Source of the DNA: Prochlorococcus sp. AG-442-M23
Lineage (GTDB): Bacteria; Cyanobacteriota; Cyanobacteriia; PCC-6307; Cyanobiaceae
DNA: 64,000 nt
Direction of reading: 5' to 3'
Assembly: GCA_003209655.1 (NCBI GenBank)
Contig: QCPW01000007.1
Location: 3,149 to 67,148, forward strand
Shown: positions 1,273 to 50,606 of the stretch, in pieces
Layout of the letters: every line of letters begins with the position of its first letter
Position numbering within the stretch: the first letter of the stretch is position 1
Program-made: the position numbers and the translations under genes
The notes under the pieces: model-generated
The model's database searches: none
Seen by the model: only the letters and a program-made list of their open reading frames with translations
What the model was told of the DNA's origin: nothing

Positions 1273-1278
1273 ATTAAT

Positions 1279-2808
1279 CTAATTTTTATCAATTCCTTTG
1301 AAAACATTTTGAATATTCTGATCGGGAATAATTCTATGAGGAGCGCCACTAAATATTTGCTCAAAATTAGAAAATGAATCCTTTATTTCAGGCCCTTGGC
1401 TGGTGATTATAAATTCTCTTATTCTTTTATCATGCCATGAACCTCTCATTTTAAATACATTTAAGGCTCTAGCCATCTCCCCTTTAATTTCGACGTATTG
1501 AAGTAATAATATGGTATCAGTTATTGTTGAGATATGAGAGTCGGTAATAGAATGACTTCCCATAAATTCTTCAGCAGTATTAGTGAAAAAACCTGCTATC
1601 TCTTCCTGTTTTGAATATCCAGTAACTCCAATTACAAACTGTCTAAAAGCATTCAAACTTACACCTCTTGCAAGTGCCGAGAGAGAATCAATCGCCATTC
1701 TTTTTGGCTTAAATTGATTTATTTGAGTTTTTATAATCTGTAAGTGATCTTCTAAACCAGTTGATTCAGGGTATGCACAAATAATTTTTAACAAACCATC
1801 ACTTTCCATTTTTTCAAAATCTATTCCCCAACTCGTTGCATTTCTAAGTAGTTGAGCTCTAGATTCTTCATAAGCAAAGAGAATTGCTCTTTCATTATGG
1901 TTGTAGGCATCTTCAATAAATTTAGATACAAGCATTGTTTTACCTGTACCAGTGGCACCAGTTGCCAGAATTATTGAATCCTGAAAATAACCACCTCCAC
2001 ACATTTCATCAAGATCATTTACTCCTGAACTTATTCTGATGTTTGAGGATCTTTGAGTTAATCTCATAGCTCCCAAAGCAAAAACACTTATTCCATCATT
2101 TCCCATTGTGAATGGGAATTCTCCTTTCATATGAACTGTTCCTCTCAGCTTTAAGACTTCTAAAGTTCTTCTTCTCTTCTCCGATTCAAGAACATTTCTT
2201 AATAAAACGACATTATCAGATACGAACTCCTCAACTCCATAACGAGCTATAGGTCCATAATCTTCTACCCTTTCAGTAGTCATAACAGTAGTTACCCCTA
2301 TTTCTTTTAATCTTGCGATAAGTCTGAAAATCTCTCTTCTGACAACATATATAGCATCATATTGCTGGAAAACAGCGGTTATCGAGTCTATCGCCACTCT
2401 CTTTGCTTTATATTTTCTTATTGCATAACTAATCCTTTCAATCAAACCTGAAAGATCAAAACTACCCGCAACATCCTGTCCATCAGGATCAGGTGATGCG
2501 TCCAAGATAAAAAGTTTATTTTGATCAATTAGATTCTGTAAATCCCATCCAAAGCTCGCTGCATTCCTAATTATATCCAAAGGTGATTCTTCAAAGGTAA
2601 TAAAAATTCCTGGTTCATCAAAATTGCAAATTCCATGATGTAAATATTGAAGAGAAAAAACAGTTTTTCCTGTTCCAGATGTTCCGCTAACAAGTGTGCT
2701 TCTAGCAGCTGGTAAACCGCCTCTACAAACATCATCGAAACCTTCTATTCCAGTAGGTAATTTCTGGACTTGCATTTTAATTGAATTACTAATTTTTTTA
2801 TCTTTCAT
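1279..2808 (-). CDS. kaiC: Circadian clock protein KaiC
   Basis: 509 aa with two RecA-like halves, each carrying a Walker A (GTSGTGKT and GATGTGKT). Lies directly downstream of kaiB on the same strand. Confidence 0.97.
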   Translation of the reverse strand: MKDKKISNSIKMQVQKLPTGIEGFDDVCRGGLPAARSTLVSGTSGTGKTVFSLQYLHHGICNFDEPGIFITFEESPLDIIRNAASFGWDLQNLIDQNKLFILDASPDPDGQDVAGSFDLSGLIERISYAIRKYKAKRVAIDSITAVFQQYDAIYVVRREIFRLIARLKEIGVTTVMTTERVEDYGPIARYGVEEFVSDNVVLLRNVLESEKRRRTLEVLKLRGTVHMKGEFPFTMGNDGISVFALGAMRLTQRSSNIRISSGVNDLDEMCGGGYFQDSIILATGATGTGKTMLVSKFIEDAYNHNERAILFAYEESRAQLLRNATSWGIDFEKMESDGLLKIICAYPESTGLEDHLQIIKTQINQFKPKRMAIDSLSALARGVSLNAFRQFVIGVTGYSKQEEIAGFFTNTAEEFMGSHSITDSHISTITDTILLLQYVEIKGEMARALNVFKMRGSWHDKRIREFIITSQGPEIKDSFSNFEQIFSGAPHRIIPDQNIQNVFKGIDKN

Positions 2809-13511: not shown

Positions 13512-13560
13512 AACGCAACCTGCTATTTTCTTATTAGGGGGATTAAAAATTCTTCAATTT

Positions 13561-13632
13561 GGGCGATTAGCTCAGTGGTAGAGCACTACCTCGACACGGT
13601 AGTGGCCACTGGTTCGAATCCAGTATCGCCCA
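13561..13632 (+). tRNA. tRNA-Val (anticodon GAC); CCA not encoded
   Basis: Cloverleaf folded by hand. Acceptor GGGCGAT/ATCGCCC, D arm GCTC/GAGC, anticodon stem CTACC/GGTAG with loop TCGACAC, T arm ACTGG-TTCGAAT-CCAGT. Confidence 0.8.
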
Positions 13633-13700
13633 TGAAAAGTTTTGACAGCCTAGGGTTGTATCCACAGAAAATAATTTCATTTTTTAGATTATTAAAAAAG

Positions 13701-36914: not shown

Positions 36915-37538
36915 CTATAAGACAACTTTCCTGTAAATTACAGAAAAGTTGTTGGCTGGCATTCGAATAAGCTCTTCTCTACTAAAACCATTCTTGGAAG
37001 CTTGTTCACTCACTTCTCCAAGGTCTCTAACACCCCAAAATTTATTTTGCATTTTTAAGGATTTATCGAATAAAGAATTGCTTTGACTTATGTGCTTATT
37101 ACCAATTTTAAATGGTCCATATAACATCAAAAATTGTCCTTTTTTTAATAATTTCCCTGACTCGTTAAACAGTGATTTTGTACAGTTCCAAGTAGATATA
37201 TGAATCATATTTATAGATATTATTCCTTGAATAGATAGAAACATTTTGAATGGAATTTTCCAAGGAGTTTTCTCCACATCAATATCTAAAGGTTGAGGCA
37301 TTTTTAAATTTAATCCCTCATATTCAATCCAAGAACTAATACTCTTTCTGTGCAAAAGTTCAGGATCGCTTGATTGCCAAGTTATTTCTGGGAACCGTTT
37401 TTGAAATACAACTCCATGCTCACCACTACCACTTCCAATTTCTAAAACAAAACCTCTATTAAGAAGAATTTTTGATAGTACTTTCCCTATAGACTCTCTA
37501 TTTCTCTCAGTCGCAGGAAAAAAAAGTCTATTATCCAA
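36915..37538 (-). CDS. DUF938-type SAM-dependent methyltransferase
   Basis: FFPATERNRESIGKVL start and LEIGSGSGEH motif I; TTG start. Confidence 0.68.
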   Translation of the reverse strand: MDNRLFFPATERNRESIGKVLSKILLNRGFVLEIGSGSGEHGVVFQKRFPEITWQSSDPELLHRKSISSWIEYEGLNLKMPQPLDIDVEKTPWKIPFKMFLSIQGIISINMIHISTWNCTKSLFNESGKLLKKGQFLMLYGPFKIGNKHISQSNSLFDKSLKMQNKFWGVRDLGEVSEQASKNGFSREELIRMPANNFSVIYRKVVL

Positions 37539-37547
37539 AGTATTTTT

Positions 37548-37712
37548 TTATTTAGCTTTTCTCAATTTTGGCGCTTTATAAAACATAATTTTGAAGCTAA
37601 AAAATAATATTGAAAAAGATAAAATTGGTAAAATATATAGTATTAAATCAGGGCTAAGTAAAGATGGTAGGTTTCCAAAAATTAAGTGCATATAATAAGT
37701 AGTAAATGACAT
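37548..37712 (-). CDS. Small membrane ORF (54 aa) directly upstream of the DUF938 gene
   Basis: Its stop lies 9 nt before the DUF938 start on the same strand. MSFTTYYMHLIFGNLPSLLSPDLILYILPILSFSILFFSFKIMFYKAPKLRKAK. Confidence 0.35.
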   Translation of the reverse strand: MSFTTYYMHLIFGNLPSLLSPDLILYILPILSFSILFFSFKIMFYKAPKLRKAK

Positions 37713-37814
37713 AACTATTTAATTTTATTTATTTAATTAATAGCAATTATTTACAAAAATAAAAATAGTTTTAAAAAAAATTTCTAAGAATATAAATTTA
37801 TTTAAATATTAGAT

Positions 37815-37905
37815 AAAAAGAGTCAGCCTGTATCCCTACTAGCTGCCTCTTAAAGCGATATTAGTTTAAATTTACTTTAAATGAGGATTCTTGTCTTTAA
37901 AAATT
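37815..37905 (-). ncRNA. Candidate small RNA, copy A (3' hairpin with conserved loop plus U-tract; 5' end is a guess)
   Basis: Minus strand reads GAGGCAGCT-AGTAGGGATACA-GGCTGACTC-TTTTT. Homologous to copy B at 42466..42500 and over about 30 nt upstream of the hairpin. Confidence 0.4.
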
Positions 37906-38246
37906 ACTTAGAGGATAATTTTTTGATATAAGGAAAAAAGTAATGATTTAGTTACTAAAAAATGAAAAAGATTACTTTTTTAACAAAAATGAATTCCTAA
38001 GAAAAATTGATTTTTAAACTATTAATTATAAAAACCAACCTCAATCACAATAATAAATGTGTTCATGATATAATAAAGGTATCTCAGGTAGAGATAAGAT
38101 TAATTAATATTGACCAAGCCAATAAATTTCTATTAAGAATCTAACTTGCAAGAGTCATTTATCCTCAATAATTTGAGTTTTTAATCTATATAAATAGATT
38201 AAATTAAAATTTTATTTTTTATCAGGCCTGAATTAATATCATTTCA

Positions 38247-38381
38247 ATGAAAAAACTAAACAAAAAATATGCAGACTTACTGCATCAAGCTTCAATAGCA
38301 ACTGGAAGAAAAGAAGCAGTAAATTTATTACAAAAAGCTGCAAAGCTCCAAAACAAATTTGATGAGAAGTCTAAGCTTTAA
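38247..38381 (+). CDS. Small basic ORF candidate (44 aa)
   Basis: MKKLNKKYADLLHQASIATGRKEAVNLLQKAAKLQNKFDEKSKL. Confidence 0.25.
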   Translation: MKKLNKKYADLLHQASIATGRKEAVNLLQKAAKLQNKFDEKSKL

Positions 38382-39066
38382 ATAGATTTTGATTGAATTT
38401 CAATAATAAGTTAGGGTAAATCTTTTCTGCTTCATTTCTTATCTGTTGAGAGAGTTTCAGGATAATTATTTTTTAATTTGTGCGGGGATTATCAAGAGTA
38501 AATTCCACGATCTAAAACGGCAGAAATTTGTTTAGAGATTATGCATAGAGATTAAATGAATAATTTCAGATATAGATAAGAATAATTCCATTGCGAGGTA
38601 AATCGCACAACAAATAACTTTCTGAGAAAGCTAAAAGAAACTTATTTATTACTTATTTTGAAAGAAAAAATTTAAAGATAAAAATTATCAATAAGATATT
38701 AAACTCGTGTAAATACATTTTTGAAATGACACTAAAAAAATAAACTATTTCTCTTTGAGAATTACTTCGAGTTGGAGATCATCTAATTGTTCCAGATAAT
38801 TTCGCATTACAAGGAAATGAATTGCGACTTTTTATTTTTCAACTTTTCCTAAGAATTTCTGCGGAAACTCTATCAAGTAATTCTTTATGATTCATGAATA
38901 TATTCTTTTTCAACTTGATTAATTACACGATTAAAAATTCTTATAATAATTGTGATGGATCAAACACTGAAACCTTTATATCTTCGTTAAAAATTTTATT
39001 TGTAGTTTAATTTAGGTTGTTCATGCGACTTAGGTTGAGTGGTAAGTTCATTTATTGATTAAATGT

Positions 39067-39315
39067 TTATATTTTTTTATACAGATCGCAAGAATGAGTT
39101 AAATGCTGACCATGATAAATAAGTTTTTGATGCCAGTTACAACAAAGAATTGAACCATAACTTTCTTTGATTTTGTAATCAAATTTTGAACAAGTCATAC
39201 ATACATGACTACCTATCGATCTTGAATAAGTTGGATCCTCAATATATTCCCATTCATCGTGAAGCTTATGGTATTGCTCACATAATAAAGAGGATACTGT
39301 TATTTTTTTGAGCAT
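39067..39315 (-). CDS. Cys/His-rich small protein (putative metal-binding)
   Basis: 82 aa with CEQYH, HVCMTC, CCNWH and HSC clusters. Confidence 0.5.
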   Translation of the reverse strand: MLKKITVSSLLCEQYHKLHDEWEYIEDPTYSRSIGSHVCMTCSKFDYKIKESYGSILCCNWHQKLIYHGQHLTHSCDLYKKI

Positions 39316-39557
39316 AACATTAATAATACATTTGTACTATTATTTTTACATCCTCGCAGGTAAGAGGTCAACTTATACATCAAGATAATACTTATAAGAT
39401 CCCGAATCTTGATCTAAAAAAGAAAGTTATCGACTTAATCGAGCATTTATGTAGCATAAATGTACCTTTAAGGATCTATTTTTAGATAATTTTGGAATTT
39501 TCTTTACAAATTTAAATATATATGTTATATTTATTTACATAACTTATTTTTAAAAAA

Positions 39558-39665
39558 ATGACTCCTGAAGCAGAACGTTTTAATGGTTGGGCCGCAATGT
39601 TAGGTTTCGTAGCAGCTGTAGGTGCTTATGTAACAACAGGTCAAATTATTCCAGGTTGGTTCTAA
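39558..39665 (+). CDS. hli: High-light-inducible protein (35 aa)
   Basis: ERFNGWAAMLGFVAAVGAYVTTGQIIPGWF is the HLIP/CAB-like helix. Below the track cutoff. Confidence 0.85.
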   Translation: MTPEAERFNGWAAMLGFVAAVGAYVTTGQIIPGWF

Positions 39666-39805
39666 TGAAAAAAGACGAAAAAAAATTAATCGAAAAAGAA
39701 AAAATAGTAGCTGAGAAGTTAAATGGTAGGTTTGCGATGATGGGCTTTGTGGCCTTAGTTGGAGCTTATCTAACAACAGGTCAAATAATACCTGGCTTTA
39801 TTTAA
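39665..39805 (+). CDS. hli: High-light-inducible protein (46 aa)
   Basis: EKLNGRFAMMGFVALVGAYLTTGQIIPGFI. Its ATG overlaps the upstream TAA (TAATG). Track ORF 39587..39805 is in the same frame with an over-extended start. Confidence 0.85.
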   Translation: MKKDEKKLIEKEKIVAEKLNGRFAMMGFVALVGAYLTTGQIIPGFI

Positions 39806-40043
39806 TAACTTCTAAACTAATAACATTTCTAACCAGGTTGTTTAAACAATCTGGTTTTTAATTGTCTTAAATAAATTATTTTCAGAAATTAAAAAATTTG
39901 TTAATAGTATTTCTATCTATCAATAAATTTCTTAATCATTAAACATTTATCTTTTTGCTTAAAAGCTAATAATTTTTTACTCTGTCTTAATATTTTAAGT
40001 TTCTCATTTCTCAGGCTTTATAAAATCATGATTAATAAATAAA

Positions 40044-40175
40044 GTGATTTACCCTCCACCTCAGATTGTTTTTGGCTTACTACTTTTATTCACTGCAGTA
40101 GTCTTGATTTGGGACATCAGATACAATCCATTCGGAGAGAACGAGGACAGAAAATTAAAAAAAAAAGGTTTTTAA
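40044..40175 (+). CDS. Small TM peptide (43 aa), PPPQI family
   Basis: VIYPPPQIVFGLLLLFTAVVLIWDIRYN (GTG start). Paralogue at 48984..49088 reads MILPSPQIAIGLLLISIGIFATFDIRLN. Confidence 0.35.
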   Translation: MIYPPPQIVFGLLLLFTAVVLIWDIRYNPFGENEDRKLKKKGF

Positions 40176-40551
40176 ACCACTAATAGAATTATGTGAGGGA
40201 AATTTATATTAAGCTATTTTTTTCTAAATCTTTTTGAGCTTCCTCTAGTTTTTTAAAATAACTTTAGATTTATAATTAATAAATTCTCAATTTTTTCTTA
40301 TATAGAGTTCAACCTTATGGAATTTTCCAGTTGGTGTAATTTCTTTTCTTAATTTAGTAATATTTGATTAGTGACTTTTTCAATAATAGAAATTTAGTTA
40401 GCTAATCACACTTCTTTCTTCAAAAAAGAAAAATGATTAACGTTTTTATTAAAATAAACTTTATTAAATTAGATTTTTAATCAGTATAAAAACTCTTTCG
40501 GAATAACAAAAATCATATTAAAGTTAAATCAAATAATTGGAGGGGAATAAG

Positions 40552-40653
40552 ATGACTAACCTCGGATTGGAAATTGTATTCTGGCTAATTTTGTTAACCT
40601 ATCTTGGAGCGAGAATCACTCAAACTAAAAAAGGATACAAACAACAATATTAA
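40552..40653 (+). CDS. 33-aa TM peptide, MTNL family
   Basis: GGAGGGG Shine-Dalgarno. MTNLGLEIVFWLILLTYLGARITQTKKGYKQQY. Paralogue at 54755..54856 has the same length. Confidence 0.5.
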   Translation: MTNLGLEIVFWLILLTYLGARITQTKKGYKQQY

Positions 40654-40751
40654 ATAAGGGTTTGCAATCCTACTATTTGGAAATCCTTACAAAGATATAA
40701 TTTAAAAATATAGTAATTTCTTTAATTAATTATTTTTTATTTTCTAGTATC

Positions 40752-40879
40752 GAATTAAGAAAACCAAATGACAATCCATTGGGGGCCAATTTAATATCAG
40801 ATTTCCTTATTAAAGATTATTGGAAAGAAAAATGCGCAATGGATTCCTCTTAAAAAAATACCTTCTCTATTGCAATTAA
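40752..40879 (+). pseudogene. Probable decayed copy of the C-x8-C-x3-C peptide family
   Basis: DLISDFLIKDYWKEKC aligns with DLSYDIKTKELEAYWNKEC of 54516..54668. It has no ATG and an early stop, and a ...LLYCN stop follows in another frame. Confidence 0.3.
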
Positions 40880-40971
40880 AATCTACTTTTTTTACTTAAA
40901 AATGTAAACTTTGCGGATTGATTTTTAATAGATCCATCCTAAATTAAATTTAATTCATCAAAGGAAGATTT

Positions 40972-41076
40972 ATGACTACAAGAAGGAAAAATTCCAAGAC
41001 AAAAAAAGTTGAAACTAATACAGAATGGTTAGATAAAGTTATCAATCAACTTACCAATAAGGAGCTTCTTAATTAA
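40972..41076 (+). CDS. Small ORF (34 aa), NTEWLDK family
   Basis: AAGGAAG Shine-Dalgarno. MTTRRKNSKTKKVETNTEWLDKVINQLTNKELLN. Shares NTEWLDK(V/L)I with 62661..62798. Confidence 0.4.
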   Translation: MTTRRKNSKTKKVETNTEWLDKVINQLTNKELLN

Positions 41077-41224
41077 TCCTTGAACAATTATTTGCAGCAA
41101 GTGGCTTTAACTAACAGTATATACTTGAGCTCTAGCTTTAAATTTCTTTTGGATAAATATCAATTCAAAGAAGAATTTTTAATTGTGAAAGGTGCTAGAT
41201 TTATCAAGTAATTTAGGATGCCAA

Positions 41225-41353
41225 ATGAGAGTAAAACTGGAACCCGAAACTGCATTTATAGGTAAAAAATTTGCATATATTTTCCTGGGAATAATATTTG
41301 GGCTTAATGGAATAGCCTTTATTTGGTTTTTCTTTTTTTCTAACCTGAAATAG
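41225..41353 (+). CDS. Small TM peptide candidate (42 aa)
   Basis: MRVKLEPETAFIGKKFAYIFLGIIFGLNGIAFIWFFFFSNLK. Confidence 0.3.
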   Translation: MRVKLEPETAFIGKKFAYIFLGIIFGLNGIAFIWFFFFSNLK

Positions 41354-41663
41354 GGTTAATCAACTAGAACTTATTAATATATTTCGGTTGAATATTGGGA
41401 TATATTTTCCCCTTATACTTAGAGTTATATGTAAATCCTATAAAAATCAAATTAGATATGAATAAAAGATTTATAGCTGAAAAAATAATGACTCTTATTA
41501 TTTCTCTTATAAGTTAATAATATTATCAATTATTATTATTTCTTATGTTTCTTCTTGGTGTTAGAAATTCATTTGTTGATTTATTTATATTTATCTTTAA
41601 ATAAAATATTCTTATATGATCGTTTTGCAAAATACAGATGCACTCTAATTGAAAATTGAAGTT

Positions 41664-41756
41664 TTAAACAAATCCATCAATGATTTGCCCTGTTGTTAAA
41701 TAGATACCAAGTAGAGCTAACAAAAAAAATGTCATTCCAAATCTTCCATTAAGAAT
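41664..41756 (-). pseudogene. N-terminally truncated hli remnant
   Basis: (I)LNGRFGMTFFLLALLGIYLTTGQIIDGFV-stop, with an in-frame TAG immediately upstream and no ATG before the helix. Confidence 0.55.
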
Positions 41757-41925
41757 CTAGGCAAATACTTTTTATTTCTCAACTTTATTGTTGTAGGATT
41801 TGAGTTATTTATTGGTTTATTGAATGAATAATTTATATTTTCCTATTGAAAATTTATTGTTAAACATACAACAAGAAGGGGTGTAAGGGTTAAAACAAAA
41901 CTCAAGGAGCAAGCAAGATGACCTA

Positions 41926-42132
41926 CTAAAAAATACCTGGAATAATTTGGCCTGTTGTTACATAAGCACCTATTAACGCAACAAGGCCAATCATTGCCCA
42001 ACGACCGTTAACTTTCTCTGCATTTTGAGGGTAACCGTCATATGAGACAGATTCATCAATATATGGACGAGTTTCAGCAGGGAACATATTCTGTCTTCCG
42101 CCTGATTCTGTTGTGACTTCTGAATTAGCCAT
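41926..42132 (-). CDS. hli: High-light-inducible protein (68 aa)
   Basis: EKVNGRWAMIGLVALIGAYVTTGQIIPGIF C-terminal HLIP helix. Confidence 0.9.
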   Translation of the reverse strand: MANSEVTTESGGRQNMFPAETRPYIDESVSYDGYPQNAEKVNGRWAMIGLVALIGAYVTTGQIIPGIF

Positions 42133-42145
42133 TGCTAGTTATGTA

Positions 42146-42163
42146 ATTGTTAAAGAATGTAAC
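42146..42163 (-). promoter_or_regulatory. HLR1-like direct repeat upstream of the 68-aa hli gene
   Basis: Minus strand reads GTTACATT-CT-TTAACAAT. It matches (G/T)TTACA(T/A)(T/A)-N2-(G/T)TTACA(T/A)(T/A) at 15 of 16 positions and ends 13 nt before the ATG. Confidence 0.4.
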
Positions 42164-42404
42164 ACAAGTATTAAAAAAAGTAAAGTATATTGCAAAAAAA
42201 TCAGATTAACTATCATTATTTGACAACTATGTACCACACCTGTCAAATAAAAGTATTTTAGGTTACTACTTCTCCATAACCAATAAAAACAAAGGGGCTT
42301 AATAGGAATTCGAGGCTTGCACAAACCAAAAATCATATTCCATGAAAGAGTATAAGCATTTATACTCACACTAAGTAATTTTACTTACTATTATATATAT
42401 AAGG

Positions 42405-42500
42405 CATTTAGGAAGTGCTTAGCTGGTTAATTTCAGTCAGTTTGAATTTAACTTATTCGTCATGAGAGTTTGCTGGTAGGGATACAAGCAAGCTCTTTTT
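42405..42500 (+). ncRNA. Candidate small RNA, copy B (3' hairpin with conserved loop plus U-tract; 5' end is a guess)
   Basis: GAGTTTGCT-GGTAGGGATACA-AGCAAGCTC-TTTTT at 42466..42500. A TATATATATAAG -10-like tract lies about 70 nt upstream. Confidence 0.45.
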
Positions 42501-42597: not shown

Positions 42598-42645
42598 TTA
42601 GATTTTAGTATTTTAGATTTTAGTATTTTAGTATTTTAGAATTTA
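42598..42645. repeat. Tandem 7/8-nt repeat (T)ATTTTAG x6
   Basis: TTAGATTTTAGTATTTTAGATTTTAGTATTTTAGTATTTTAGAATTT, read directly. Confidence 0.85.
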
Positions 42646-42714
42646 TTTTTTTAGAAATTTACCTGTCAATATAAAATTAATTTGCTAAAAAAAGGATAAA
42701 GTTTGAGTTTAAAA

Positions 42715-42816
42715 ATGTCTCTAGACTTCGTTCTTATTCCTTTTTGTATTATTTTTATTTTATGGCTTTTTAATAGGGAGAACAAGATCTACTACAATAA
42801 TAAAAAAGTAAGGTAG
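42715..42816 (+). CDS. Small TM peptide candidate (33 aa)
   Basis: MSLDFVLIPFCIIFILWLFNRENKIYYNNKKVR. Confidence 0.25.
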   Translation: MSLDFVLIPFCIIFILWLFNRENKIYYNNKKVR

Positions 42817-43361: not shown

Positions 43362-44549
43362 CTAAAATCTACTAGATCTCCATAATAAGAATGTTCCAAA
43401 TCCCAAAAACAATAGCACAGGAATCCAAGCTGCAAGAAATGGAGTTAATAAGCCTATAACTCCCATTGAACTAAATACAAAACAAGTTAAATAATATAAA
43501 AAAATAAGTATTATGCTAATTCCAAAGCCTTGAGATTTCGAAGATCTAATATTTTGTTTTATTCCAAGAGTACTTCCTATTAATGAAAAAACTATGCAAG
43601 ACATAGGTAGTGTCATCTTTTCATTTATTCTTACTTTCATCTTTCTAGATTCTTTTATATTTCCAGACATCTCATACATTTTTTGAGCTTGTTTAGCCTC
43701 AGATATTGTCATATTATTAGCGTCACGGGGAATTTGAGCTAATTTAGACGGGCCATTATCTAATGGATAAATATATGTATCAAATAAAATGGTCGAAACT
43801 GATCCCTCATCCTCAGTAGCCATTATTTTTCCATCATTAAATTTCCAACTACTTAATTGATCATCAAAGGAACCATTATTAGCAGTTAATAATATTTTTG
43901 TTCCTTGTTTTGAAAAATCAATAACTGTAACATCATACATAATTTTATTTAAGAATCTTCTTGCATAAAAAATATGAGTTAAATGAGATGCTCCATCTAT
44001 AGGTTTGTTAGTTTTACTATCTATTATCGAGCCATATTTCGAAAATGAAATATTGTATCTTCCTTTTTCTGTTCTTATTGATTTACCAAGACTATTCTGC
44101 AATAAATCAGAAGCCACACGATTTGAAATTGGTACCAAATTATCACTAAAAGTAAAAGTAAGAAATGTCATAAATAATGCCAAAAGCAAAGAAGGTAAAA
44201 CTATTCGATAGTTATTAATTCCTAAGCTTTTTAGAGCTAATATTTCTGAGTTTGAGGAGAGAGTTCCATAAGTTAGTAAACACGAAAGAAGAACTGACAT
44301 TGGAAATGCAATAACCAAGAATCCAGGCAAACTTAAAAAAAATATTTTTAAAGCTATAAAGATAGGTAATCCATACTCAACAATTTTTCTTATCAGATCG
44401 AACATTACTCCTACAGAAAGAGATACGATGGTAAATGCAGAAATTGCAAAAAATAATATTGGTATTAATTTAGATATTATCCACCTATCTATAAGTGGAA
44501 TTTTTTTTAAGATTGCAGACATCAGATAATTTAATTTTAAATTTCTCAA
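43362..44549 (-). CDS. LptF/LptG-family (YjgP/YjgQ) permease
   Basis: IDRWIISKLIPILFF start, three TM helices, a large soluble insert, then three more TM helices; 395 aa. Confidence 0.78.
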   Translation of the reverse strand: MRNLKLNYLMSAILKKIPLIDRWIISKLIPILFFAISAFTIVSLSVGVMFDLIRKIVEYGLPIFIALKIFFLSLPGFLVIAFPMSVLLSCLLTYGTLSSNSEILALKSLGINNYRIVLPSLLLALFMTFLTFTFSDNLVPISNRVASDLLQNSLGKSIRTEKGRYNISFSKYGSIIDSKTNKPIDGASHLTHIFYARRFLNKIMYDVTVIDFSKQGTKILLTANNGSFDDQLSSWKFNDGKIMATEDEGSVSTILFDTYIYPLDNGPSKLAQIPRDANNMTISEAKQAQKMYEMSGNIKESRKMKVRINEKMTLPMSCIVFSLIGSTLGIKQNIRSSKSQGFGISIILIFLYYLTCFVFSSMGVIGLLTPFLAAWIPVLLFLGFGTFLLWRSSRF

Positions 44550-47345: not shown

Positions 47346-47884
47346 TTGGAAAATAAAAAAGTTATAAAATCAGCCTCAATTAATTATGAATAAAATTCCA
47401 GAAGAATCATTCAATAAGTTTTTTCCACTAGGTTTCAAATAAATCGGCATTTCTACGCATATACAAAAAAAATTATTCATACTAATTTTTTATTAATTAA
47501 TCGGAGGGGTTTTCAAATGATCGATAGTCCACCAGAGAAGTTCACTAGATTGGTTTAAGCTGCCAATTGTTTACTACTACACATAACTAAGTTAAGAGAT
47601 TAATTTCAAAAGAAAATGATTAATCTCTTTTTTATTGCCTTAATCTCTAAATATATGTCTTATGAGAGGTTATTTTAAAAGAATTTAAAAGGATTTAGCT
47701 CTTCTAAAACAAATCCTTGTCTAAAGATTCAAATAAATTTCTTAGTATCTATTAAAGTATCCTCTATTGTTTATTGAGATAAACATTAGATCTTTATCTT
47801 AAGTAACTAGATCCCCTATAAGTAAGCTTTATTAATTTTTCTTCTTGCCTCTTACAGTATACAAATGACTTGCCATTGAAATAC

Positions 47885-48004
47885 ATGTTTACCATGATGC
47901 AGCTCCAGAATTTGCTCAAGTCCCCGTCCTATGGCTTGAGTCGTACTGCGGTCTATCAAATGTTAGATCGGACGATTTTGGTAGTATTAACTACAATTTA
48001 TTAA
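47885..48004 (+). other. 39-codon ORF in a GC-richer patch; possible remnant of an excisionase/AlpA-type HTH gene
   Basis: MFTMMQLQNLLKSPSYGLSRTAVYQMLDRTILVVLTTIY. The GLSRTAVYQMLDR part resembles the recognition helix of small phage-type HTH proteins. The tail looks non-native. Confidence 0.2.
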
Positions 48005-50477: not shown

Positions 50478-50606
50478 TTAGAAGATACCTGGAACAATTT
50501 GACCAGTAAAATAGTATGCTCCTACAAGAGCGAACATTCCAAGCATTGCAGCTTTACCGTTGAGCTTTTCAGCTTTTTCGGTCATAATGTTTTTTGCGAA
50601 TTTCAT
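50478..50606 (-). CDS. hli: High-light-inducible protein (42 aa)
   Basis: EKLNGKAAMLGMFALVGAYYFTGQIVPGIF. Below the track cutoff. Confidence 0.85.
   Translation of the reverse strand: MKFAKNIMTEKAEKLNGKAAMLGMFALVGAYYFTGQIVPGIF

Follow-up and report, generated by a model that had tools for sequence, protein, structure and literature searches.

Two hairpins that share an apical sequence and end in uridine (U) tracts lie in inverted orientation on either side of a cluster of high-light-inducible (hli) genes in Prochlorococcus sp. AG-442-M23. Both were found in a 64,000-nucleotide stretch of contig QCPW01000007.1 (positions 3,149 to 67,148; hereafter the window). Our analysis indicates that these elements, copy A and copy B, probably serve as intrinsic-terminator modules for a pair of paralogous small RNA (sRNA) genes, Yfr27 and Yfr20, which are transcribed outward from a conserved locus of high-light (HL) Prochlorococcus and share the module by descent. 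Both RNAs had already been named (Yfr27 reportedly by Voigt and colleagues in 2014); their paralogy, the constant bracket that they form around hli genes, and the sharing of their 3' module with an hli operon look new. Prochlorococcus has very few protein regulators, for which sRNAs are thought to compensate, and we know of no function for either Yfr20 or Yfr27.

Two sRNA genes with a common 3' hairpin

The two genes and their parts are as follows.

37815..37911, minus strand: Yfr27-like sRNA gene (copy A), from family covariance model R1 (76.5 bits) and orthology to MED4 yfr27
37849-37820, minus strand: copy A terminator hairpin, followed by a T run at 37819-37815
42365..42394, plus strand: Yfr20 promoter-like site from a consensus scan, with -35 CTCACA and -10 TATTAT
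42402..42500, plus strand: Yfr20 sRNA gene (copy B), from Rfam RF02367, model R1 and the predicted fold
42466-42500, plus strand: copy B hairpin, consisting of GAGTTTGCT (42466-42474), G, GTAGGGATAC (42476-42485), A, AGCAAGCTC (42487-42495) and TTTTT (42496-42500)

An earlier note, made from the window's letters, had drawn attention to this pair. Its coordinates and sequence for copy B (42466-42500) were exact, and its sequence for copy A was correct as quoted, with the first G of the stem at minus-strand position 37849 rather than 37851. As the note had also claimed, the 11-nt core GTAGGGATACA and the tail CTCTTTTTAT have the same letters in both copies, two stem pairs differ in a compensatory manner (position 5, C-G versus U-A; position 6, A-U versus U-A), and sequences upstream of the hairpins are similar (AATTTAA-CT-AT), a likeness kept family-wide. 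At stem position 9, copy A has U.G where copy B has U-A, and a G.A mismatch, unique among 116 distinct family sequences, interrupts the stem of copy A at position 4.

Shared letters in the core would by themselves be weak evidence of kinship, as two or more matches to the 11-mer with at most one mismatch occurred in 8 of 100 shuffled sequences. Model R1, by contrast with this test of the core, scored copy B at 77.1 bits and copy A at 76.5 bits (37807-37882), with E values of ~2e-14; reverse-strand shadows of both hairpins aside, the next independent match in the window reached 17.8 bits, and no third copy was found in its 64 kb with search filters off. The hairpin folds were also more stable than those of shuffled sequences (-13.2 kcal/mol, z -3.3; -17.0 kcal/mol, z -5.3). 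An exact-pattern scan for GTAGGGATNCANNNNNNCTCTTT, using one genome per species, returned at least 119 loci, at least 77 of them in Prochlorococcus, and among the matches listed the Prochlorococcus types comprised ~65 of copy-A type, ~10 Yfr20 genes and three hybrids. Matches in Streptococcus and other non-Prochlorococcus genomes were chance hits with no match to the model. A chance origin of the look-alike hairpins is ruled out by the R1 scores together with the conservation in Prochlorococcus, and their paralogy, as first proposed, is borne out.

The conserved RNA structure that the earlier note had argued from two base pairs was evident across the family: 97.6% of cells in the alignment of 116 distinct module sequences were paired, compared with 31-41% in slid-partner controls. 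The module is a two-tier hairpin with a lower stem of 9-11 bp, a 1x1 internal loop, a 3-bp upper stem, a GGGA tetraloop and a U tract, and every variant was predicted to adopt this one type of fold, with 3-4 bp in the upper helix and 3-4 nt in the loop. Four of 12 pairs changed on both sides (U-A/C-G, C-G/U-A, A-U/U-A and U-G/A-U); these double-sided changes mostly split the paralog classes and therefore represent few independent events. Compensated variants also occurred within the Yfr27 type (UUGGCU/GGCCGA in MED4, UUAGCU/GGCUAA in locus L069; loci in other genomes carry our L numbers), and the MED4 module contributed an additional A-U to G-C change. The consensus of the copy-A type reads ...AUCCUCAUUUA..AAUUUAAAUUAAUAU..AGAG UCAGCU A GUAGGGAUAC A GGCUGA CUC U(n).

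These hairpins have the properties of intrinsic terminators, with folds of -13.2 to -18.3 kcal/mol and T5 or longer directly after each, and the known size of the Yfr20 transcript and the yfr27 read interval both stop at the hairpin and U tract. A simple terminator scanner missed both because it limits loops to 3-8 nt and does not allow an internal loop.

Copy B is, by homology, the 3' end of Yfr20. The Rfam model RF02367 (Yfr20) matched positions 42402-42490 over its full length (1-89) with 96.4 bits (E 3.7e-16; gathering cut-off, 44 bits), and the gene shares with members of that family the layout of three hairpins and the location beside hli genes. A 5' hairpin and a second hairpin are followed by an unpaired UCGUCAUGAGAG (42457-42468), the terminator hairpin (42466-42495) and the U tract, in a predicted fold of -30.3 kcal/mol (z -3.67). 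In MED4, Yfr20 is an abundant RNA of about 89 nt with its own promoter, encoded in genomic island 5 less than 2 kb from hli11/hli12, and is the sole non-coding RNA that was raised upon transfer from dark to high light (Steglich et al., 2008; PMC2518516). Our Rfam match in MED4 (locus L138) coincided with the published interval 1336435-1336523, and homology to the MED4 start mapped by 5' rapid amplification of cDNA ends (PMC2518516) suggests where transcription of the window gene would begin. The promoter-like site sits inside a block, GCATTTATACTCAC...TAAGTAATTTTACTTA, that is kept in all Yfr20 loci and is also found upstream of the hli-ORF36 operons described below.

Copy A belongs to a different gene. 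Tried as a second Yfr20, it scored 15.0 bits (E = 7), with only the 3' hairpin aligned and an unrelated 5' half, and the Rfam scan of copy A gave no family match besides this sub-threshold one. It shares just the last ~50 nt with Yfr20 and lacks the 5' hairpin GCAUUUAGGAAGUGC; the Yfr20 linker UCGUCAUGAG is missing from the copy-A type in most genomes. The corresponding region of MED4, retrieved via the neighbouring 54-aa protein PMM2067, contains a copy-A-type module at 1333758-1333834 on the minus strand, as found by R1 search. Inside this module lies a transcript-covered fragment, 1333763-1333821 (minus strand), which is labelled "yfr27" in Table S3 of Lott et al. (2020; PMC7368042), with an RNAz z of -4.71 and P of 0.977; that study detected transcripts over the 3' end of Yfr27 in the sea. 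The fragment consists of the hairpin plus ~20 nt upstream and ends in the U tract. Window copy A aligned with MED4 along the predicted RNA, and the flanking PMM2067 and DUF938 genes matched as well. Because the MED4 module covers the yfr27 fragment, we assign copy A, on position and aligned sequence, as the ortholog of MED4 Yfr27. Thus, the expectation that both hairpins end sRNA genes is upheld, by Yfr20 for copy B and by a Yfr27 ortholog for copy A.

The copy A gene carries an invariant AUCCUCAUUUA at 37888-37878, and a conserved AATAAT-like -10 box in the alignment suggests a 5' end near 37911. Among 46 HLII Yfr27-type sequences analysed with RNAalifold, the terminator was the sole consensus structure and AUCCUCAUUUA was invariant and unpaired. 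A 5' hairpin in Yfr27-type RNAs was weakly supported (82.6% paired), and a candidate conserved CCUC:GAGG hairpin was rejected, as the partner varied without compensation and RNAalifold dropped the pair. HLI and HLII versions of Yfr27 are unlike throughout the 5' half, and window copy A differs from other members by the G.A stem mismatch. We found neither a curated family nor a published structure for Yfr27; a covariance model of the module would recover Yfr27-type genes that Rfam now misses. L132 (CP138976.1) and L138 (BX548174.1) were identical letter for letter across the aligned Yfr27 region, and given this identity CP138976.1 looks like a re-sequenced MED4-type genome.

A constant bracket around hli genes, and kinship with an hli operon

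Yfr20 and Yfr27-type genes faced outward in 49 of 49 Prochlorococcus loci with both genes, among the matches listed, and the outward-facing pair was also present in the window, MED4, MIT9215 and two further genomes. Read from one end, the locus contains an LptG-like gene, a 33-aa membrane open reading frame (ORF), Yfr20, a 68-aa hli gene, a 42-aa ORF and tandem hli genes; toward the other end, the tandem hli genes are followed by the Yfr27-type gene, a 54-aa membrane ORF and a DUF938 gene. This order was constant in strain SB, L082, a MED4-like single-amplified genome (SAG) and MED4. The 68-aa hli gene occupies the same position in HLII genomes and is missing in MED4-like genomes. The interior between the sRNA genes spans 1.48-1.76 kb in most loci (HLII-like), 2.3-4.0 kb in some, ~2.76 kb in MED4-like genomes and 4.7 kb in the window. 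The paralogs are thus locked around hli genes in all high-light lineages examined. Inverted duplication of a whole module (small ORF, sRNA, intergenic region and hli gene) was considered and rejected: the hli-proximal promoter regions of the two sides were homologous (z 4.7), and the regions downstream of the terminators were not (z 0.8).

The module also occurs outside this bracket. In two SAGs carrying Yfr20 or the Yfr27 type, a third element on a separate contig consists of a Yfr20-like leader (AUUGCAUUAGGAAGCGUCUUAGCU), a 36-aa ORF (MDLISKKQRYVPLKAVPYIFFVAVVLSITTTTNTFV), UCGUCAUGAGAG and a hairpin with Yfr27-type stems. It fits a second MED4 entry in the table of Lott et al., which is labelled "3' region of yfr27" and spans 1348946-1348997 of the minus strand (PMC7368042); a protein search with the 36-aa ORF returned no MED4 protein. 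On four further contigs, a 44-aa hli gene shares an operon (hli-ORF36) with a paralog of the 36-aa ORF, and this operon ends in ...ACAUCGUCAUGGAAGUCAGCUAGUAGGGAUACAGGCUGACUUUUUU, with module scores of 52.7-58.2 bits. The 36-aa membrane ORF (MD.ISK.Q.YVPLK.VPYIFF.AV.LSITTTTNTFV) thus stands either alone behind the Yfr20-like leader or directly after the 44-aa hli gene, and the hairpin module closes both arrangements (L093, 6333-6547, plus strand; L124, ~1277-1575, minus strand; L141, 9823-10170, plus strand; L142-L144). By tblastn, this ORF is absent from the window.

Several observations connect Yfr20 with the hli-ORF36 operon. First, the operon and the sRNAs share a 3' end composed of ACAUCGUCAUG, GAAG, the hairpin and a U run. 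Second, the operon starts with the Yfr20 promoter block and leader, TTATACTCAC ... GCATT(T)AGGAAG.G.CTTAGCT. Third, a profile of the Yfr20 promoter and first 28 nt matched exactly the 5' regions of hli-ORF36 operons (E ~7e-4 to 3.5e-3) and matched none of seven unrelated hli loci used as controls. Because module, promoter and leader are common to Yfr20 and the hli-ORF36 operon, Yfr20 is best read as an hli-type transcript stripped of its coding part. The simplest reading of these sequences would be a deletion series that runs from the hli-ORF36 operon through an ORF36-only transcript to Yfr20, with the Yfr27 type having kept the 3' module alone; one variant of this type, L073, retains UCGUCAUGAGAG. 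If so, Yfr20 offers a clean natural example of an mRNA-born sRNA.

Comparison with other RNA systems places these genes in context. Yfr2-5 and Yfr11/16 of Prochlorococcus, Qrr and PrrF likewise comprise several paralogous sRNA genes per genome with a conserved module; unlike those groups, Yfr20 and Yfr27 share the 3' module only, with unrelated 5' halves, and their module also ends protein-coding transcripts. The sharing of a terminator and adjacent stretch between the hli-ORF36 mRNA and free sRNAs is similar to that of CpxQ, SroC and DapZ, enterobacterial sRNAs from 3' untranslated regions (UTRs) or decayed genes. Unlike these RNAs, Yfr20 has its own promoter, homologous to that of the operon, and therefore looks like the outcome of an internal deletion of the coding part rather than a processing product. 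In Yfr1 (RF01116), a cyanobacterial sRNA, an unpaired ACUCCUCACAC separates two hairpins; its design is the same as that of the Yfr27 type, in which the CU-rich unpaired AUCCUCAUUUA lies ahead of the terminator hairpin, and the two motifs have a common core, UCCUCA. The length and flanks of Yfr1 are unlike those of the Yfr27 type, and no Rfam Yfr1 match was found at the Yfr20/Yfr27 locus; the likeness is one of design only, not of membership.

Mechanism and alternative readings

In the model that we favor, Yfr20 and Yfr27, each divergent from an hli gene and each trailed by a small membrane ORF, owe their shared module to common descent. Yfr20 would have kept the high-light promoter, leader and 3' end after loss of the coding part, and its response to light would come from this hli-type promoter. 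The hairpin would terminate transcription and protect or stabilise the 3' end of the RNA. If the RNAs act in trans, pairing may occur via the conserved unpaired stretches upstream of the hairpin, UCGUCAUGAG in Yfr20 and AUCCUCAUUUA in Yfr27, the latter CU-rich and anti-Shine-Dalgarno-like, as in Yfr1. The shared light-responsive promoter and these two motifs are thus where the results suggest that regulation and targets be sought.

Some points weigh against this model. The 5' end proposed for copy A depends on a single conserved -10-like box, and the G.A stem mismatch of copy A together with slightly altered promoter spacing could mean that this gene is weakened. For the yfr27 label we rely on Lott et al., whose Table S3 also gives a second MED4 locus the label "3' region of yfr27" (PMC7368042). 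The E values for the 5' homology between Yfr20 and the hli-ORF36 operon are modest (~1e-3). Simple complement searches in the window yielded no target candidates, and none is proposed (AUCCUCAUUU, 42 observed versus 37 expected; UCGUCAUGAGAG, 3 versus 2; no enrichment). Finally, the invariance of GGGAUAC despite a shift in pairing register exceeds what a generic terminator needs, and the apical region may have a specific function.

This last point bears on whether the hairpin has a role beyond termination. The earlier note had proposed that the core is a single-stranded loop serving as an sRNA seed. In the predicted fold, which the covariation matches, GUA pairs with UAC and leaves the GGGA tetraloop, so that the loop has 3-4 nt and the remaining core is helical. 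Because the core folds into a 3-bp helix under the GGGA tetraloop, the terminator loop is, as modeled, a poor seed candidate. In a broader version of the idea, apical GUAGGGAUACA would be a functional recognition element of both RNAs, either a pairing seed or a site for a protein or RNase, and the hairpin would be more than a terminator. GGGAUAC is nearly invariant across the 116 distinct sequences and in four transcript contexts (GGGGUAC and GGGAUGC are rare variants), whereas the lower stem covaries, and HLII Yfr20 keeps GGGAUAC despite the loss of one base and a shifted pairing register. Nevertheless, prediction leaves no more than 3-4 loop bases of the core unpaired in any variant, four such bases are too few for a seed, and a diverged yet clearly homologous copy with GUAGAAAUGC (GAAA for GGGA) keeps the GNRA-type loop and the helix and not the sequence. 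GNRA tetraloops are also common on terminators in general. We regard apical recognition as unlikely on balance. A different extension can be offered tentatively, as a possibility that we would not yet back: UCGUCAUG-RRAG and the hairpin with its GGGA cap would together make up a functional, portable 3' domain marking the sibling RNAs of a small high-light regulon, and Yfr20 would derive from a coding-stripped hli operon. The regulon would include Yfr20, Yfr27, the 36-aa-ORF transcript and the 3' UTR of the hli-ORF36 operon; the evolutionary half of this proposal is fairly well supported by the sequence comparisons above. If it is true, hli expression and putative trans-regulation would be coupled via a shared type of promoter and a shared 3' recognition element.

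Two further readings treat the hairpins as something other than the ends of sRNA genes. They could act in cis, as leaders or attenuators that control whether transcription continues into the small membrane ORFs 100-200 nt downstream, as a small hydrophobic ORF follows both sRNA genes on the same strand and a short U tract (CTCTTTAAA) in some genomes would permit read-through. We consider this role very improbable, however, given that Yfr20 is present as a distinct and abundant RNA of 89 nt (PMC2518516), that a conserved promoter-like block belongs to the downstream 54-aa ORF itself, that terminator-to-ORF regions are dissimilar between the two sides, and that no conserved alternative antiterminator pairing was found. 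The earlier note had also suggested that an hli cassette that moves or recombines could have the hairpins as its inverted ends, which would make them the inverted terminal repeats of an element that is mobile or recombines site-specifically. The repeats are indeed inverted and outward-facing, interior length differs by lineage, the MED4 locus lies in hypervariable island 5 (PMC2518516), and hli genes are common to phages (PHROG). This interpretation fails, and we give it almost no credence, because the flanks are fixed in ~54 loci (DUF938 and the 54-aa ORF at one end, the 33-aa ORF and LptG at the other), the interior is never inverted in the loci examined, there is no recombinase, and no phage relatives were found. 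No integrase or transposase was found among the interior genes; three IMG/VR pattern scans gave chance matches or none, with no hit that fitted model R1; and BLAST of both sRNA genes against INPHARED phages returned nothing; on these searches, a phage origin or phage copies were rejected. Moreover, each repeat belongs to a transcribed sRNA gene, and similarity between the repeats stops ~50 nt from the hairpin. These results leave the interior as an insertion-prone stretch between two sRNA genes that are anchored.

Other features of the window

The remaining genes and sites at the locus are listed here.

36915-37538: DUF938 gene, after the 54-aa ORF; conserved outer flank
37548..37712, minus strand: homolog of MED4 PMM2067, a 54-aa membrane ORF that follows copy A on its strand; conserved outer flank
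37775-37746, minus strand: the 54-aa ORF's own promoter-like site, from a promoter scan
39503-39531, plus strand: promoter-like site of the tandem hli genes (promoter scan, 10/12 with TG)
39558-39665 and 39665-39805, plus strand: tandem hli genes of 35 aa and 46 aa, from ORFs, tblastn and PHROG (high-light-inducible protein)
41225..41353, plus strand: small membrane ORF beginning MRVKLEPETAF..., from the ORF list and tblastn
41667..41801, minus strand: hli remnant, intact ORF lost (tblastn, 56% identity over 45 aa to the 46-aa Hli)
41926..42132, minus strand: 68-aa hli gene, divergent from Yfr20 (phrog_178, E 6.8e-28)
42703..42816, plus strand: 37-aa membrane ORF that follows Yfr20 on its strand; conserved outer flank
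43362-44549, minus strand: LptG-like gene, beyond the 37-aa ORF; conserved outer flank

The interior content described earlier, two tandem hli genes, one hli remnant and the 68-aa hli gene, is confirmed by these assignments. The MRVKLEPETAF... ORF appears to be placed like PMED4_15791 of Steglich et al., judging from a MED4-like SAG; in the MED4-like locus L055, an ORF of this type immediately precedes Yfr20 on the same strand, as reported for MED4 (PMC2518516). A 38-aa membrane ORF, MEGNKMTNLGLEIVFWLILLTYLGARITQTKKGYKQQY (40537-40653, plus strand), matched the phage family phrog_36745 (E 1.2e-5) and is also found in MED4-like loci and beside the diverged hli-ORF36 copy in L093. An 82-aa Cys/His-rich ORF (39067-39315, minus strand) had no Pfam or PHROG match; it lies within the extra DNA of the 4.7-kb interior and was not seen in MED4-like or HLII loci with ORFs listed. 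One extra hli copy lies outside the bracket (50481-50585, minus strand; 66% identity to the 35-aa Hli by tblastn).

Several short repeats accompany these genes. A perfect inverted repeat, CATTTATG-TAG-CATAAATG (39444-39462, plus strand), precedes the -35 box of the tandem hli promoter by ~50 nt. In HLII genomes, related ACAT(A/T)TATGT palindromes occur in both hli-sRNA intergenic regions (L058, 3900-3917 and 2795-2810), and GCATTTATAC is located upstream of Yfr20; these sequences are candidates for a shared operator of the light response. Between the Yfr20 terminator and the 37-aa ORF is a tandem repeat array (42598-42661, plus strand) with ~6 copies of the unit TTAGTATT, which can also be read with periods of 15 and 23. 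Farther away, ~5 kb past Yfr20, Rfam matches identified Yfr11 (47495-47634, plus strand, 66.7 bits), which is in another island in MED4, and a Glutamine-II riboswitch aptamer (47915-47977, minus strand, 59.4 bits), and a tRNA-Val is present at 13560-13633.

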